DNA of 64,000 bases from a virus (Duplodnaviria > Heunggongvirae > Uroviricota > Caudoviricetes), in the IMG/VR virus record IMGVR_UViG_3300042009_000026, positions 192,001-256,000 of that record, one strand, 5' to 3'. The notes under the pieces were generated by a model. That model was not told the DNA's origin. It did no database searches and saw only the letters and a program-made list of their open reading frames with translations. Position numbers and translations under genes: made by a program. Positions 2 to 29,023 of this stretch are shown here, one piece after another. Each line of letters begins with the position of its first letter. The first letter of the stretch is position 1.

Positions 2-2122
2 GGCGACAGCGTTCTGGCTAAAGGTAAAGGCCTGGTAGAATTCATCAGTCAAGAAAACTTCGGCGACATCTCTGAAGCTCAACGTGGCACCGCTGGTCAA
101 ATGTACCAGGACATCGGCGCTACCATGCAGAAGTTCGGTTTCGAACACTTCAAAGATAGCAAAGGCTATATCACCGAAAACCAACAGCGCGCTGCTACAG
201 TTGCTGCTATTGCTTGCGCTGATCCAGAAGCTTACAAACGTGCCCTGCGTGCCGTTTCTAAAGAAGTAGTTTCCAACGAAGACAACGTTCACAACGTACG
301 TCACGAATTCGGTGGTCCTGCTGGTACCCTGCAAGTTTTCCAAGACCACCTGGGTCTGGAAAACTACAACGAAAAATCTCAGCGTGACTTCCGCGTCGTA
401 ACTGTTGGTTACAACCTCGAAGCTTCCCGTCAGGATGAGTTTGCTGAACGTCTGTACCCTACTACCGTTATCAACCCAGTTGAAGGTGGTGTTGTTCAGG
501 TTCTTCCTTACATCGCTGTAATGAAAGACGTCTATCACGCTGTTAGCGGTGCTAAACTGCTGAACGAAGAAGTCAACATGGTAGAAGCATACCGTGACCC
601 TTCGATCCTGGATGACAACTGCACTGACCTGATCCCTGCTGTTGATCCAGATGGTACCAACCTGAAGTTCTTCGTTGATCCACTTCTGGTTCCACACCAC
701 GTTGTTACCAACGAACAGAACATGTCGGTTACCACTGGTCCTCTGAAGCCAAACGTTAAGATCGACCTGATGGGTAACTCTAACGCCAACCTGCTGATCA
801 ACAAAGGCATGCTGGACGTTTCTGATACCATCGATCCAAGTGGTCGTCTGAAAGCTCTGTACGTCAAGTTCGACGGCAAAGTAGTTCGTTTCGTTGTTGA
901 CCGTCTGCCTACCGCTGTATTCCAGCCTGGCCTAGTCGGTGACACCCGTATTGCTAAACTGGACTTCATCACTGAAGACCTGGTTGTTGGTGCTGACACC
1001 AAAGCAATCGACGGTTCGGTATCTGCTAACATGCAGGAACTGGTAAACCGTAAGTGGACCGCACGCATCTCCGTTACCTTCACTGGTCACGTATCCACTT
1101 CTCGTGGTGATGCTCGTTACGGCGCTGCTGGTATCGAAATCGACCGTATCGTCGACGAAGACCGCAAGCTGATCTCGATCGAAACTGGCGACGGTGCTGA
1201 TCTGGTTGCAGCTATCGGCGAACTCGAAGTTATCGGTTACGACCTGGACGTTAAGTTCACCAACACCAACCGCCGTCAGCGTGGTCACCTGTTGGCTACT
1301 CGCGCTATCCAGTTCCGTCACCCAATCCCGATGCACGCTCCGGTTACCCTGCCAATGTCCACCATGGATGAGCAAGGCCCAGGCGACGTCGTTAAGGCGC
1401 TGACTGTCAACACCAACATCCGTAACAGCAACAACGCTGTTAAACGTCTGCTGAACTACCTGGCTCAGCTGAAAGAAGTTGTTGGTAATGGTTACGACCG
1501 TCCTAAGTTCGGCGCTGTTGAAGGTGCTCTGAGCATCATGATGCGTCCAACCTACCGTGAAGGTTCGTTGCACCTGCCTGACCACATCGACACCCTGAAA
1601 TCTCAGGATCGCTGGCAGGACGTTTGCAGCACCATCTTGAACTTCGCTAAAGGTATCCTGTTCCCAGCATACCGCGAGTCCAACATCGAAGCTGCTTTCC
1701 GTGTAATCTCGGGCAACCAAGACGAGAAGCCAATGTTCATCTTCGCTACCGACAAAGAAATCGGTAACTACCTGATGACCCAAGGCGACGACCGTACTCT
1801 GGGCGCAATCCTGGAATACGACCTGGTAACTACCAACAACGAACTGTTCGATGGTAAACTGGTAATCGTTCCTACTCGTAAGAACCCAACCGAAAACGAC
1901 ATCCTGTCCTTCGGTCAGTTCTTCTACGTATCGACCGTGATCGCTGACCTGCCTATCACTCGTGGTGGCCAGCAAGTGACTCGTGAGATCGCAGCTGTTC
2001 CGTTCAACCTGCACGTGAACAACATCCCATTCGCAATCAACCTGACCATCACTGGTCTGGAAGAAGTAATGGGCAAATCGCAGTGGAACAAACCACTGAT
2101 CGATGCTATCACTACTCCATGA
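2..2122 (+). CDS. Major capsid protein (phiKZ gp120-like), 5'-truncated by window
   Basis: Frame open from base 2 (GDSVLAKGKGLVEFISQENF...) into ORF 101..2122. Strongly biased high-expression codons. Prohead protease-type S/A/G-x-E motifs (ISQE, VSNE, LGLE|NYNEK). QDEFAERLYPT and NTNRRQRG recalled as phiKZ-type capsid motifs. Lies upstream of the gp123-like gene. Confidence 0.9.
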   Translation, partial: GDSVLAKGKGLVEFISQENFGDISEAQRGTAGQMYQDIGATMQKFGFEHFKDSKGYITENQQRAATVAAIACADPEAYKRALRAVSKEVVSNEDNVHNVRHEFGGPAGTLQVFQDHLGLENYNEKSQRDFRVVTVGYNLEASRQDEFAERLYPTTVINPVEGGVVQVLPYIAVMKDVYHAVSGAKLLNEEVNMVEAYRDPSILDDNCTDLIPAVDPDGTNLKFFVDPLLVPHHVVTNEQNMSVTTGPLKPNVKIDLMGNSNANLLINKGMLDVSDTIDPSGRLKALYVKFDGKVVRFVVDRLPTAVFQPGLVGDTRIAKLDFITEDLVVGADTKAIDGSVSANMQELVNRKWTARISVTFTGHVSTSRGDARYGAAGIEIDRIVDEDRKLISIETGDGADLVAAIGELEVIGYDLDVKFTNTNRRQRGHLLATRAIQFRHPIPMHAPVTLPMSTMDEQGPGDVVKALTVNTNIRNSNNAVKRLLNYLAQLKEVVGNGYDRPKFGAVEGALSIMMRPTYREGSLHLPDHIDTLKSQDRWQDVCSTILNFAKGILFPAYRESNIEAAFRVISGNQDEKPMFIFATDKEIGNYLMTQGDDRTLGAILEYDLVTTNNELFDGKLVIVPTRKNPTENDILSFGQFFYVSTVIADLPITRGGQQVTREIAAVPFNLHVNNIPFAINLTITGLEEVMGKSQWNKPLIDAITTP

Positions 2123-2206
2123 AGGAATCCGGATAATGTTCGTCTACTAGAAGATGGAACAATCCGGTATCTGGAAGACGGTACTGTCCTACGGTACCAA
2201 GAGTAG
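2123..2206 (+). other. Putative in-frame stop-codon readthrough extension of the capsid (LEDG-repeat tag)
   Basis: After TGA (2120-2122) the same frame reads RNPDNVRLLEDGTIRYLEDGTVLRYQE-TAG with no in-frame ATG/GTG/TTG. The motif recurs at the C-terminus of 28484..29023. Confidence 0.65.
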
Positions 2207-2210
2207 CAAA

Positions 2211-2243
2211 CATACTGCCTCTCCTAGTGAGAGGCTTTATGCC
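2211..2243 (+). terminator. Hairpin terminator after the capsid and its extension
   Basis: GCCTCTC-ctagt-GAGAGGC stem flanked by CATA...TTTATG. Confidence 0.7.
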
Positions 2244-2381: not shown

Positions 2382-2978
2382 ATGAATTACTTTGACCGCT
2401 TTGAGAAAGTGCTCAACCAAAAGTTCAATGGTGACTTAGAGGCTACCCTGAACTTCACCCGCTTTGATAACTATCAAGGCAAACCGTTACGCATCCGTGA
2501 AATCGATCGTCGTCCTAAGAAGGAACCTGTTTATGTAACAATCCCTGATGAACCGATAGTTGACATTCCAGTTGTTGAACCAGCAGAGGAAGTTGAATTC
2601 GAAGTAATTGATTTAGAAGCAGAGATGGAAAGAAGGAGAAAAAGTACTGAGACTAATAATCCTGTACAACCTGAACCAGCTGTCGAAGAATCGAAAGCTA
2701 TTCCTCTTTCTTTGACCTTACGGGATACGACTCAGTCGACATCCAGGGGGTCGGTTTTACAAAAGAAGAAGAGTCAAACTACCAAGACCGCGCTCTCGGC
2801 TACCGGTGGTAATCGAGCCCAACGTAGAGCCGCCAAAGCCCTTATCCGCAAAGGTGGTAAAACGTCAAGTTCGAGTACTCGGAAAGACGATGAACGAAAC
2901 AGTGGTGGTTCACAAAAAGCCCACGTACCGAAACGTGTGAGTTTGAGTGAACTGGAATTCGGGTTCAGATTGGAATAG
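2382..2978 (+). CDS. Hypothetical protein with acidic middle and basic disordered C-half (NRAQRRA motif)
   Basis: ORF track, ATG at 2382, downstream of the early promoter. Confidence 0.65.
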   Translation: MNYFDRFEKVLNQKFNGDLEATLNFTRFDNYQGKPLRIREIDRRPKKEPVYVTIPDEPIVDIPVVEPAEEVEFEVIDLEAEMERRRKSTETNNPVQPEPAVEESKAIPLSLTLRDTTQSTSRGSVLQKKKSQTTKTALSATGGNRAQRRAAKALIRKGGKTSSSSTRKDDERNSGGSQKAHVPKRVSLSELEFGFRLE

Positions 2979-2982
2979 TTTT

Positions 2983-4170
2983 ATGCCGCAACGTGGGAAA
3001 AGTCCATTCACTGAAATCAAAGGTTTAGATTACCAAGCCGGTTATATTAGCAAAGATAGTGCAATCGCAACTCAGCAAGGTAAGTTGGGTTCTCAGATGT
3101 CTGTTGGCGGAAGCTGGATTATCGAGAACTATACTGATACTGAGATCATCAGTTATAACCGACTGGGTATTACACAACGGGCTAAGCAATGTAAACCGGT
3201 TCGTGGTTATGTCCGTATCGAGATGTGCATGTGGGTTGGCTCTCTGTCAGCATTCGAAGATCTAACGCTTCGTACCACCACCAAGCATTTGACGGAAGCG
3301 CAACGTAAGATGATTAGCGATTACATGGCATCGCCTGTAGCTGATCGCCTGCGTCCGCAATCTGGTTATCAAGAACTAAGACTGCATTGGGATATCCCAG
3401 CACAGTTGTTACGTGATAATCCTCATGGTGTCTATCTAGATGTCCTAGGGATCGTAATCGCATTCGTAGACCCGAATGCTAGCTCGTTCGCTCCACCGCA
3501 TGTCGACTTCGAATATCTAGAAGACGATGAGTTCGAACATCAGGGTGTCTATGCATCCTTCAATAAACATGATGACTTAGTCCAGGCTGTCTGGATCAAT
3601 TATAAAGGAACTAGTGCCACCAAGCTCTGTAACAACCAGAACGATCCAAGCCAAGATGAAGGCCTGACTGTATGGATCGATGGCGAGAAGCATTTCTATA
3701 AGCTATCTGAGATGGCTAGCAATGGCTATCACATGACAAAAGCTGCAGCGTATGCTGAGCATTCTGAATCTAATGCTGCCGCCTCTGGTGCGCACAAACA
3801 ACATCTACAGGAGATGGAAAGAGAATACGACCGCAAGTTGAATGAAGAGAAGACGACTTATGAACGTCGAATGCGTGAAGAAGCAATTGCACGAGAACAA
3901 GAGCAGAGAGAATCTGATCGCCAACTCAAAGAAGCTGACCGGGTCAATAAAGATCTCCAACTCAAGCTTGCTGCAGAGAAGGATTATCGACTCTATCTAG
4001 ATCAGCGTGCAGATAAAAGATACGACCGAGAACAACTTATAGTTGACAAGCGTCCAATCCGGATTACTTCGAAGCTAACTGTGGTAGCTACTGCGACCAC
4101 TGTGGTGTTAGGTTGTATCAAGTTCTACCAGGAAATAAAGCGAATGTACGGCACAGAAGGGAGTACGTAG
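2983..4170 (+). CDS. Conserved phiKZ-like protein (gp122 position) with coiled coil and C-terminal hydrophobic helix
   Basis: ORF track. E/R-rich heptads, then LTVVATATTVVLGCIKFY. Stop overlaps the next start. Start codon uncertain (2947 or 2983). Confidence 0.7.
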   Translation: MPQRGKSPFTEIKGLDYQAGYISKDSAIATQQGKLGSQMSVGGSWIIENYTDTEIISYNRLGITQRAKQCKPVRGYVRIEMCMWVGSLSAFEDLTLRTTTKHLTEAQRKMISDYMASPVADRLRPQSGYQELRLHWDIPAQLLRDNPHGVYLDVLGIVIAFVDPNASSFAPPHVDFEYLEDDEFEHQGVYASFNKHDDLVQAVWINYKGTSATKLCNNQNDPSQDEGLTVWIDGEKHFYKLSEMASNGYHMTKAAAYAEHSESNAAASGAHKQHLQEMEREYDRKLNEEKTTYERRMREEAIAREQEQRESDRQLKEADRVNKDLQLKLAAEKDYRLYLDQRADKRYDREQLIVDKRPIRITSKLTVVATATTVVLGCIKFYQEIKRMYGTEGST

Positions 4171-9811: not shown

Positions 9812-10240
9812 CTAGAAATGCAGTGTAACTGGATAAGGAGGCAACCAATTGATTGCATTAATCCGAGGAGTTAATGTTACAGACGTAGCTGCTGGTAGAA
9901 TAGTACCAAAGAAGAAGTCTTCATCGTAAACAGCAATGTCATAAACACTACGAAGCATTTCTAATATTTCCGTAGTGTTAGCATAATCCCCAGGCTTACC
10001 CACTAGCTTAACATCCTTCAAAGCATCATCGATACGATAGCGATTATAATAAACCACTTGCGAACCTTTGATACGAGTAGAAGTGGTCTTAGCCTGTATG
10101 GTTACTCGAGCATTACAATCATTCTGCAACCATACACCCGCATTAACAAAGTCGACATCTTTAATTTGGATAGCAGGCACGATCCCATGTAATGCACTGA
10201 ACTCATTCAAGAGTTTTTCTTTTGTGTCCGGTAAATACAT
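9812..10240 (-). CDS. Virion structural protein (phiKZ gp126/127-like family)
   Basis: ORF track. A YxR...I..L....DD pattern is shared with 10248..11123 and 28484..29023. Confidence 0.7.
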   Translation of the reverse strand: MYLPDTKEKLLNEFSALHGIVPAIQIKDVDFVNAGVWLQNDCNARVTIQAKTTSTRIKGSQVVYYNRYRIDDALKDVKLVGKPGDYANTTEILEMLRSVYDIAVYDEDFFFGTILPAATSVTLTPRINAINWLPPYPVTLHF

Positions 10241-10247
10241 GTTAACC

Positions 10248-11123
10248 TCAATCGTAGTGCAGACGTAAGAAGCCTGTCATGTTAGAAGATAGATCACTAA
10301 GTTCTAATACCACTACACGGTAGAACTCAGAACGAGAAGTCCACTTAGGGATAGTCGCCCCATTGTAGACAACCTTACAATGTGGTTCACCATCTACTAA
10401 AGAATGGACGATGTTGTTAACGGCAGGAACAGATTGGATTTGGAACTTGATACCCGATGCCTGGAATAAAGGATTCAGTAGTTGTTCTGGGTTATGATAC
10501 AACCCAACTGGAAGATCCTTAAGACTATCTCGCCAACGACTGAAGTCATAACCATTCGTGCAGTAGTTACCATTGATTTTGGCAGGATCAGGTCGAACCG
10601 TTACTTCAGGAAACTCATTCGGTTTAGTTGTCAACGTAGAGATGTCAATCTTAGACGTATTAGTTAAACGAACGCGCAAGAAACCAACAAACCGTAAGGA
10701 CTTGTCATCCGCCTGAATAATTATATCGTTATCACCTACAGCATTGAATCGATCGAAAGTTTGATGGATGAAGTCATCTGTCTCAAATACAATCTCATTA
10801 CGTTTACCAAGCTTAGTCAGAATATCAATCGTGCTAATGGGTAACGTTAAACCACGAATGTCAACAGCAAAGGTATTGCGGAAGAACTCAGTGCAATTCA
10901 GTCGATCATAAGTGAATACCGTTTCGGTAATCTCTGGCATCATGTTAACTGGATTAGTAGAACGGTTCGGAATGATTTCAATCTGAGTTAGCTTAGGACC
11001 CAACTTAACCAGTTCCTTTAACTTCACAATTCCAGGTTGGAGTTGGAAATTATATTTGTCATTGATCATGTCACAAATAGCTTGCCATGAACCTACCTTG
11101 AGGTAGTCGCGTGTGATATACAT
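10248..11123 (-). CDS. Virion structural protein (phiKZ gp127-like)
   Basis: ORF track, synteny, C-terminal GFLRLHY. Confidence 0.7.
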   Translation of the reverse strand: MYITRDYLKVGSWQAICDMINDKYNFQLQPGIVKLKELVKLGPKLTQIEIIPNRSTNPVNMMPEITETVFTYDRLNCTEFFRNTFAVDIRGLTLPISTIDILTKLGKRNEIVFETDDFIHQTFDRFNAVGDNDIIIQADDKSLRFVGFLRVRLTNTSKIDISTLTTKPNEFPEVTVRPDPAKINGNYCTNGYDFSRWRDSLKDLPVGLYHNPEQLLNPLFQASGIKFQIQSVPAVNNIVHSLVDGEPHCKVVYNGATIPKWTSRSEFYRVVVLELSDLSSNMTGFLRLHYD

Positions 11124-28483: not shown

Positions 28484-29023
28484 ATGATCACTACAGATCG
28501 TTTCCCGTATGACATGCCTTCCCGCGACGCGCTCGTGGAACAGGTGAATCGTGACTTGCAACGGAACTACAAACCGAACCAAGTTAGTTTTGAAGATATG
28601 TTCTTTGCTCCTCTGCCTGCTATCCCTGGCCGTACGTTTATTGAGATGACTAGTCGCCTTACTGGCCTAAAGGAATTCTTTGTATATCGCCGGTTAGATT
28701 TGGCTAATCCTAAGGCACTGGGCACAAGTACTCGCATTAAAGTGTTGGGACAACCGTCTCCAGCCAGTATCGCAAACGAAATTAATCGCAGCCGTCTGAT
28801 GTCATTCGGCCCTGATGATATTTCATTCTCCACGGTAGTTATCCAACCTCCTGAGAACACATTCGTCTATCGCTTGAAAGCGATGACAGGCAGTTACGCT
28901 TACTTCGGCGAAACAGACATTATCGTTGAAATTATGGAAGCTAACCCGTACGCTCGTTATCTTGAAGACGGCGATGCCCGGTTGATGGAAACCGGCGAAA
29001 TTCGTGAACTCGAACACGCCTGA
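28484..29023 (+). CDS. Virion structural protein (gp143 position) with C-terminal LEDG-repeat tag
   Basis: FVYRRLDL family motif; ends NPYARYLEDGDARLMETGEIRELEHA. Confidence 0.7.
   Translation: MITTDRFPYDMPSRDALVEQVNRDLQRNYKPNQVSFEDMFFAPLPAIPGRTFIEMTSRLTGLKEFFVYRRLDLANPKALGTSTRIKVLGQPSPASIANEINRSRLMSFGPDDISFSTVVIQPPENTFVYRLKAMTGSYAYFGETDIIVEIMEANPYARYLEDGDARLMETGEIRELEHA

Follow-up and report, generated by a model that had tools for sequence, protein, structure and literature searches.

The major capsid protein gene of a phiKZ-like giant Pseudomonas phage, cut at its 5' end by the 64,000-nucleotide stretch of DNA analysed here (the window), closes with TGA, after which the reading frame stays open for a further 27 codons. 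Are these codons part of the capsid protein, and if so how does the ribosome reach them? The identity of the gene is clear: PF25620 (PhiKZ_MCP, Pfam) matches ORF 2..2122 with an E-value of 5e-225 over profile positions 1-634 of 635, and the annotated capsid genes of Psa21 and D6 display 88% nucleotide identity to it. The 3' end of the locus is organized as follows:

2..2122, plus strand: major capsid protein gene of the phiKZ gp120 type (PhiKZ_MCP match; 5' end cut by the window; stop codon included)
2120..2122, plus strand: candidate leaky stop TGA, in the context ...CCA TGA, with TGA in 29/29 distinct tail-bearing relatives
2123..2203, plus strand: in-frame extension of 27 codons, a short linker followed by three R-x-x-E-D-G-type units
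2204..2206, plus strand: second stop TAG, the putative true end of the extended product, which differs between relatives
2217..2241, plus strand: terminator hairpin plus TTTATG, 3' of the extension, with a G+C-rich stem (2217-2235) and covarying pairs

This layout, which extends over 2120-2206 from the capsid TGA through the open codons to TAG, agrees with the original prediction. The extension (2123-2203) contains no in-frame ATG, GTG or TTG, and its peptide does consist of two R-x-L-E-D-G units and a final R-x-x-E. The hairpin (2217-2235) and the adjoining TTTATG lie, as had been claimed, after TAG and not after TGA, and the stem displays compensatory changes at 5 pairs among the 11 phages compared; because a hairpin with a covarying stem sits downstream of it, the extension appears to lie inside the capsid mRNA. 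RNA-library runs gave partial contigs, one of which, from a relative, spans the TGA into the extension, although this is not proof of transcription and carries no information on translation. The TGA at 2120-2122 is identical in an independent metagenome run; a sequencing error, an isolate-specific nonsense mutation and a lack of conservation in relatives, any of which would have undermined the prediction, are all excluded. It should be emphasized that the open frame alone is within chance expectation in this genome, and is not significant, as at least 27 open codons follow the stop in 27% of 306 long ORFs genome-wide. The significance of the extension derives instead from its internal repeat, its match to a paralogous C-terminus and its conservation in relatives.

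An in-frame tail of 24-30 codons is found behind the capsid stop of phiKZ/KTN4, phiPA3, 201phi2-1, Phabio, Noxifer, PS119XW, Psa21 and D6, and of many metagenomic relatives. Conservation at the protein level past the stop, which the original prediction had looked to, was indeed found: a codon model gave an omega of 0.39 (F1X4) or 0.36 (F3X4) for the tail, and omega=1 was rejected (2dlnL 58-63, p about 1e-14). The eight near-invariant residues of the tail use many synonymous codons; across these columns there are 3 extra nucleotide states at codon position 1, none at position 2 and 16 at position 3, and the three at position 1 are CGN-AGR arginine switches. Indels within the tail preserve the frame, with a 3-nt deletion inside it in an independent run and indels of 1, 1, 1 and 4 nt directly after it, and the peptide is kept between phages whose DNA no longer aligns there. 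It is the zero frame that is conserved; both shifted frames contain stops and return pN/pS values of 0.86 and 1.09, and the frame +1 ORFs annotated over the region in Viktualia and HPP-Temi displayed no conservation. As read from its codons, these data show a tail that behaves as a protein under purifying selection in the capsid frame.

The nature of the first stop is coupled to the presence of the tail. It is TGA in all 29 distinct relatives that retain the R-x-x-E-D-G tail, and TAA in 18/18 relatives that lack any extension (TGA with motif tail against TAA without extension, Fisher p 3e-11 with phylogeny ignored); all three independent contrasts that fall on supported branches agree with the association, a number too small for a sign test to reach significance. 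In L029, a close relative, the capsid C-terminus is 99% identical, a 59-nt deletion removes the tail, and the stop is TAA. Among 27 distinct relatives the second stop is TAA in 18, TGA in 5 and TAG in 4, approximating genome-wide usage, while the first is TGA in 27/27, a pattern which shows that, across these genomes, the tail is tied to TGA. Stop-less fusions, which the original prediction had envisaged in relatives, were absent from the 120 called capsid homologues, and the matches to the tail profile included no capsid homologue. Some lineages have lost the tail, which is therefore dispensable there. In related capsid genes the stop is followed in frame by Ig-like (Big_2) domains, one of which ends in the same tail. 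The two cases not counted among the 29 and 18 have Ig-domain extensions, in one case lacking the motif and preceded by TGA, in the other ending in the motif and preceded by TAA; the Ig-plus-tail extension behind TAA in the L103 lineage fits readthrough poorly. The proline before the stop, offered originally as an argument for leakiness, is not general, as the last residue before TGA in the 27 relatives is P in 11, A in 11, G in 4 and V in 1. The fourth base is A in 19, G in 7 and C in 1, and the stop context, with mostly A at this position, thus differs from the classic leakiest one; likewise, a comparison of the relatives for a stimulatory RNA structure near the stop found no covarying pairs.

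A search of the 317,367-bp genome located the tandem motif at two places only, the capsid extension and the end of ORF 28484..29023, the latter comprising two features:

28484..29023, plus strand: gp143-type DUF7941 virion protein of 179 aa, assigned from PHROG 2935, synteny and the match of its tail to PHIKZ143
28943..29020, plus strand: C-terminal tail (residues 154-179) of the gp143-type protein, the same module as the capsid extension

The ORF is matched by PHROG 2935 ('virion structural protein', E 2e-33), the gene that follows it encodes an SLT transglycosylase, as does phiKZ gp144, and a tblastn search with the tail matched PHIKZ143. PF25613 (DUF7941) scores 18.1 bits on the ORF, below the curated cut-off of 27; its homologues carry PF25613, and phiKZ gp143 is listed as a DUF7941 protein (10.64898/2026.04.21.720040). 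In 36 homologues the tail of the gp143-type protein contains invariant R158, R166 and R174 and near-invariant E161, G163, E169 and G171. The likeness between the two C-termini noted in the original prediction is real: hhalign aligned the capsid tail profile with the last 24 residues of the gp143-type profile (probability 95.9%, E 6.5e-9), and in a joint alignment the two sets of tails align in register, which shows, at the level of sequence, that the capsid tail is homologous to the extreme C-terminus of the gp143-type protein. The tail alone gave no Pfam match; a profile search retrieved 246 proteins with an R-L-L-E-D-G-type C-terminal tag at E 1e-3 or better. Within the phiKZ clade the capsid and gp143 tails of the same genome are no more alike than pairs from different genomes (p 0.96), giving no sign of concerted evolution. 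Complex prediction with residues 1-152 of a gp143 orthologue and the 27-aa capsid tail returned a score of 0.00, which is evidence for neither side. An AlphaFold2 model of the 327 C-terminal residues of the read-through product, with W at the TGA, is unreliable (mean pLDDT 44) and simply repeats the period-8 bridge pattern of the better gp143 model.

We consider it probable, on this comparative evidence, that the 27 codons are a true coding extension of the capsid protein, made by programmed UGA readthrough in a minority of subunits. A few ribosomes would decode UGA with a near-cognate tRNA rather than terminate, yielding a capsid subunit about 3 kDa longer that ends in a short linker and three R-x-x-E-D-G-type units. 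Judging from phiKZ, in which the C-terminal arms of the capsid protein converge on the middle of every capsomer and touch outer-surface proteins at the pentons, such a tail would be exposed on the outside, on a few subunits per capsid, and it may act there as a common tag by which DUF7941-type fibre proteins are attached or assembled. According to the part of the phiKZ structural report that deals with these arms, they bundle at hexamer centres and contact the outer protein gp244 at pentons; the capsid model stops at residue 747 and no extra density is reported in that part (PMC11297242). A rare, flexible tail could have been averaged out of the phiKZ map. The original claim of a hidden readthrough tail is thus strongly supported by comparison as far as the extension itself is concerned, by selection, an invariant TGA, a variable second stop, TAA on loss, the lack of a start and the absence of stop-less fusions, whereas its further elements, a docking function for the tag and a number of docking sites governed by how efficiently the stop is read through, we can only infer.

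It could be argued that the tail is instead a free peptide of 24-30 residues, separate from the capsid protein and produced from a non-canonical start or by re-initiation after capsid termination. A purine-rich, Shine-Dalgarno-like run does follow the TGA in many relatives, the in-frame downstream ORF of L102, a related contig, has an ATG two codons past the TGA, and many free-standing proteins of 43-80 aa elsewhere end in the same tail. We nevertheless regard a free peptide as unlikely, as none of 27 sequences contains an in-frame ATG, GTG or TTG ahead of the motif, only 5/27 have a near-cognate start codon, at differing positions, and initiation would explain neither the requirement for TGA, nor the switch to TAA on loss of the tail, nor the constancy of the capsid frame. 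Less probable again is continuation of the capsid frame by another form of recoding at the UGA, either selenocysteine insertion or a short ribosome hop. The product would be identical in comparative data, and stop-hopping is indistinguishable from readthrough at this level (PMC5009743). That covariation among the relatives supported no hairpin at the bacterial SECIS position, where the weakly predicted pairs never vary, may argue against selenocysteine. A hop is difficult to reconcile with the stop-flanking codons, which differ among relatives and so provide no matched take-off and landing codons.

The stretch may, on the other hand, be untranslated, either as a nucleic-acid element conserved within the 3' UTR of the capsid gene or as the decaying remnant of a once-fused tail. 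Its position between a stop codon and a terminator, a codon choice (AGG, CTA, CGG, GGA) that is poor in comparison with the optimized capsid gene, and an openness that is not significant in one genome are all in keeping with such a view. These features are outweighed by the low omega and the rejection of omega=1, by the CGN-AGR switches at invariant arginines and the frame-preserving indels, and by a peptide that outlasts DNA alignability between phages in a region where covarying RNA structure was not found, such that an untranslated element is very improbable and, judged by the codon analysis, close to refuted. Least probable of all is that TGA serves throughout as a sense codon, owing to a change of code or an efficient suppressor, with the tail on every capsid subunit. 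The phage does encode a tRNA-Cys(GCA) and a tRNA-Trp(CCA) whose D stem contains a U11:A24 pair, an arrangement known from the Hirsh suppressor, a UGA-reading tRNA of E. coli. This tRNA-Trp is, however, restricted to the nearest relatives and is absent from phiKZ-type genomes that retain the tail; none of the 10 tRNAs of the genome has a stop-reading anticodon, and G002 has no tRNA at all. Furthermore, TGA is the ordinary stop of 29% of long ORFs in the genome, table 11 ORFs span 85% of it, homologues of gp143 themselves terminate at TGA, and the end of the phiKZ capsid model at residue 747, as given in the relevant part of the report (PMC11297242), does not suggest a tail on every subunit.

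Programmed readthrough, the reading that we prefer, may be compared with recoding in other phage capsid genes. The genome of Qbeta is ssRNA of 4 kb, its shell is T=3 and its extension comprises 196 residues, whereas this phage has 317 kb of dsDNA, a capsid of the HK97 fold at about T=27, and a tail of 24-30 residues that copies the end of another virion protein and is unrelated in sequence to that of A1. In both, however, the gene for the main capsid protein is followed, behind a UGA, by an in-frame extension. In Qbeta (Qubevirus) the minor capsid protein A1 is the product of UGA readthrough of the coat gene, and the extended subunits form a minority in the same shell (PMC8880383); in this phage, too, extended subunits would be a minority of the shell. 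In other dsDNA tailed phages (T7 10B, T3, Lactobacillus phage A2 and Listeria A118/A500/PSA) the capsid gene is recoded near its end to generate a second, C-terminally extended form that often bears a surface Ig-like domain (PMC5009743); the Big_2 domains in relatives of this capsid gene occupy the same position. These phages employ -1 or +1 frameshifting, and a frameshift-derived extension of the T7 10B type was rejected for this locus, where the -1 and +1 frames hold stops. Here a stop codon precedes an extension that stays in the zero frame, so that recoding has to take the form of readthrough or a hop. Our literature search found no description of stop-codon readthrough in a tailed-phage capsid gene, and no publication or protein-level report of this capsid tail.

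A parallel arrangement is evident in the distant phage Goslar, whose capsid gene has a TGA followed by 28 codons that match the C-terminal end of its own gp23, a DUF7941 protein of 180 aa that occupies the gp143 position. The post-TGA tail of the Goslar capsid is unrelated in sequence to the phiKZ-type tail, and capsid tail and DUF7941 tail change together between the two lineages. In the DUF7941 fibre proteins of chimalliviruses (Goslar gp22/gp23; phiKZ gp126, gp127 and gp143) it is the stretch after DUF7941 to which the capsid tail corresponds, the capsid protein having the tail only, without the domain. Goslar gp22 forms filaments, and for the Goslar DUF7941 proteins a prediction places the residues beyond the N-terminal domain in contact with the neighbouring protomer, as a docking segment (10.64898/2026.04.21.720040). 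It is conceivable, though we advance it tentatively, that the capsid tail mimics the docking tail of gp143/gp23-type proteins, such that tagged subunits would capture a DUF7941 N-terminal domain, or pair with its tail, and so anchor or seed a fibre 'cloud' on the head, with the leakiness of the UGA setting the number of anchors; the joint change of the two tails between the phiKZ and Goslar lineages argues for such mimicry. gp143 is also described as a regulator of the holin gp142, through its first globular domain, in an account that is silent on the tail (PMC12894885), and because gp143 tunes the holin in this way the same tag could link capsid assembly to the timing of lysis.

phiKZ and its relatives serve as models for the nucleus-forming jumbo phages and are also candidates for phage therapy against Pseudomonas. 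To our knowledge, the maps of their virions obtained by mass spectrometry and cryo-EM considered only annotated proteins. If the extension is made as proposed, these phages would possess a conserved, unannotated capsid isoform and the virion parts list would be incomplete. As far as our literature search shows, they would also be the first tailed dsDNA phages known to extend a capsid protein through stop-codon readthrough, frameshifting being the known route. The tail would offer a handle on where the abundant DUF7941 fibre proteins attach, and on the role of the widespread R-L-L-E-D-G-type C-terminal tag of virion proteins. Such tails escape gene callers, and other hidden extensions of this kind may therefore be common.

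The extension behind the capsid gene lies in a phiKZ-like jumbo phage genome of 317,367 bp from a rhizosphere metagenome assembly, the closest cultured relatives of which are the Pseudomonas phages Psa21, D6 and RVTF4 (~88% identical in the nucleotide sequence of the capsid gene). The layout of the region, and the other window features considered here, are as follows:

2..2122, + strand: major capsid protein ORF (PF25620, E 5e-225)
2120-2122, + strand: capsid gene stop TGA, read from the sequence
2123-2203, + strand: open in-frame extension of 27 codons, read from the sequence
2204-2206, + strand: second stop TAG, read from the sequence
2217-2235, 3' of the TAG: hairpin followed by TTTATG, the stem covarying among relatives
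9815-10240 and 10251-11123, - strand: two DUF7941 genes at the gp126/gp127 position, in which the tail motif is absent

This arrangement agrees with the original prediction, which described a TGA, 27 open codons without a start, a TAG and a hairpin located after the TAG. The extension contains no ATG, GTG or TTG, and its AGG, CTA, CGG and GGA codons differ from the optimised codons of the capsid gene. Just 3' of the capsid terminator (2271-2278) is a TATATTAC motif, invariant in Psa21, D6 and RVTF4 and present again in two other relatives (L109 and L029); it resembles an early promoter of the phiKZ type, which would serve the following gene.

It could be argued that the extension is simply intergenic sequence that happens to be open. 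Indeed at least 27 open codons follow the stop in 27% of the long ORFs in this genome (n=306), and within a single genome openness by itself is therefore not more than chance would give. It is the content of the tail that is unusual; in all six frames of the whole genome the tandem R-x-x-E-D-G motif occurs at two sites only, the capsid extension and the extreme C terminus of the ORF at 28484-29023 (+). When capsid genes of relatives were translated past their stop, a TGA followed by 24-30 in-frame codons, a second stop and a terminator was evident throughout the Pseudomonas phiKZ clade, the extension consisting of a short linker and three R-x-x-E-[DN]-G-type units. The comparison covered KTN4 (phiKZ species), phiPA3, 201phi2-1, Phabio, Noxifer, PS119XW, HPP-Temi, Viktualia, Psa21, D6 and RVTF4, together with many IMG/VR, metagenome and Logan contigs. 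The tail peptide is retained even between phages that share no alignable DNA at this position.

The manner in which the stretch varies argues that it evolves as protein in the capsid frame. Among 19 distinct tail sequences, eight columns show no or almost no change of residue, and the extra nucleotide states in these columns number 3, 0 and 16 at codon positions 1, 2 and 3, respectively; all three position-1 states are CGN-to-AGR arginine switches, and all four glycine codons are in use. A codon model of 27 distinct sequences, on a tree built from the capsid gene, gave an omega of 0.39 for the tail (0.36 under F3X4), with omega = 1 rejected (2dlnL 58-63, p about 1e-14), while pN/pS was 0.62 in the capsid frame compared with 0.86 and 1.09 in the shifted frames. 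In a relative from an independent sediment metagenome the TGA is intact and a 3-nt deletion lies within the tail; directly downstream of the tail the indels are of 1, 1, 1 and 4 nt. GenBank lists small 'hypothetical proteins' in the +1 frame over the tail region of Viktualia (L006:2546-2644) and HPP-Temi (L008:2521-2664). This frame is not conserved, and the hidden extension has thus probably led to miscalled genes in both records.

The identity of the capsid stop is linked to the presence of the tail. Across 49 distinct capsid 3' ends, TGA is the first stop in 29/29 motif-tailed genes and TAA is the stop in all 18 genes that lack an extension (Fisher p 3e-11, uncorrected for relatedness). In the tailed genes the second stop varies (TAA 18, TGA 5, TAG 4), close to genome-wide usage (61/29/10%), indicating that stops drift at this divergence while the first stop does not. 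Tail and stop identity each changed at least seven times on the tree; contrasts on well-supported branches were concordant in three of three cases, a number at which a sign test cannot reach significance. The clearest contrast is provided by a contig (RCUK01000188.1; L029:1840-2100), 99% identical in the capsid C terminus, in which most of the tail is lost through a 59-nt deletion, the remnant is out of frame and the capsid stop is TAA. The original prediction had proposed looking in relatives for stop-less fusions of capsid and tail, and none was present in 120 called capsid homologues. Thus, the tail appears to be retained only behind UGA, and never on every subunit. In the phiKZ capsid, each hexamer centre has been described as a 9-A pore enclosed by a bundle of helices, to which six C-terminal arms contribute (PMC11297242). 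A tail that is not on every subunit would fit this arm packing.

With respect to decoding, a canonical start before the motif was absent from all 27 sequences examined, and translation must therefore enter the tail from the capsid frame. In this genome TGA serves as an ordinary stop, a genome tRNA search found no tRNA with a stop-reading anticodon, and comparison of relatives revealed no covarying RNA structure 3' of the stop. A ribosome hop between matched take-off and landing codons is excluded because the codons flanking the stop vary among relatives. Near-cognate UGA readthrough, which we infer here, is the simplest mechanism; it has precedents in Qbeta A1 (PMC8880383) and in B. subtilis, where UGA is known to be read through at a background level (PMC6316719). 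The phage also encodes a tRNA-Trp(CCA), outside the window (G000:C1:59937-60012, locus L107), with a U11:A24 pair in the D stem. In E. coli the Hirsh UGA suppressor has this arrangement. The tRNA could possibly boost readthrough locally; its homologues are confined to the nearest relatives RVTF4 and D6 and are absent from phiKZ-type genomes, and so it is not the general cause. Taken together, the comparative data strongly support the reading, which we regard as probable, that ribosomes pass the conserved UGA and so append the tail to the capsid protein. In the literature that we searched, readthrough is not described for phiKZ gp120, the capsid protein, or for any tailed-phage capsid gene. The nearest known parallels are Qbeta A1 and, in T7, T3 and Listeria phages, capsid proteins extended by frameshifting; the tail described here lies behind a UGA in the capsid frame.

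The second carrier of the tail, the ORF at 28484-29023, is the orthologue of phiKZ gp143: tblastn with the tail matches PHIKZ143, the ORF matches PHROG 2935 'virion structural protein' (E 2e-33), its homologues contain DUF7941 and the gene that follows encodes an SLT transglycosylase (cf. gp144). The likeness between its C terminus and the capsid tail, already noted in the original prediction, was borne out by a profile of the capsid extensions (E 6.5e-9). The same three-unit tail ends all 36 aligned homologues, and capsid and gp143-type tails align in register with R, G, R and R invariant. AlphaFold2 predicts the orthologue with a mean pLDDT of 84.5 (tail 74-80), the tail forming beta bridges at eight-residue intervals. 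It has been reported that gp143 is non-essential and regulates the holin gp142 through its first domain (PMC12894885; 10.1101/2025.11.23.690004), and that it is one of three phiKZ DUF7941 proteins, a family proposed to form head-to-tail filaments in which the stretch after the N-terminal domain docks onto the next protomer (10.64898/2026.04.21.720040). The tail of the gp143-type protein occupies the position of this proposed docking stretch.

A parallel is seen in phage Goslar, the capsid protein of which shows only ~30% identity over the matched C-terminal stretch. Its capsid TGA is followed by 28 open codons unrelated in sequence to the phiKZ-clade tail (L024:1194-1277), and the sole other match of this tail in the Goslar genome is to residues 158-176 of the 180-residue gp23 (L113:363-902; 53% identity over 19 residues, E 4e-6 pairwise and 0.005 in the genome search). 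Goslar gp23 is an abundant DUF7941 protein (E 7e-20) whose gene adjoins a peptidoglycan-domain gene, the position of gp143. In both lineages, the tails of which differ, the post-UGA capsid tail thus copies the C terminus of the gp143/gp23-type protein that the phage itself encodes. No finer co-variation of the two tails was seen within the phiKZ clade. The gp143 tail is present in L073/L099 and L109 even though their capsid genes have TAA and no tail, and hence any dependence is one-way.

Larger in-frame additions, with Ig-like domains, lie behind the stop of two related capsid genes:

L102 (IMG/VR 3300043122_000192), 2008-2616, - strand: capsid TGA, then an in-frame ORF of 203 codons containing Big_2, an Ig-like domain
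L103 (IMG/VR 3300037502_002993), 2782-3066, - strand: capsid TAA, then 95 in-frame codons with Big_2

An ATG lies two codons past the TGA of L102, and thus its ORF may either be a decoration gene in its own right or extend the capsid protein by readthrough. In L103, Big_2 begins at the second codon and two R-x-T-E-D-G units stand at the end; the extension has no start codon and the genome no tRNA genes. Ig-like capsid additions through recoding are well known for frameshifting (PMC5009743), and would support the idea that the capsid C terminus is displayed outward.

The tail is not confined to these proteins. A profile search of 1.84 billion representative proteins returned 246 matches at E 1e-3 or better, and the best 148 of these (P0168-P0315) include 40 gp143 homologues, 74 proteins of 43-80 residues ending in three R-L-L-E-D-G-type units, a 790-residue protein, the gene for which is flanked by a tape measure gene and a tail gene, and proteins in which the motif directly precedes a Phage_cement_2 capsid-decoration domain; no capsid homologue is among these 148. 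No Pfam or PHROG family covering the tag was found. Thus, the tail is a widespread C-terminal tag on virion proteins. The most attractive reading, which we advance tentatively, is that on the capsid this tag may dock or anchor DUF7941 fibres.
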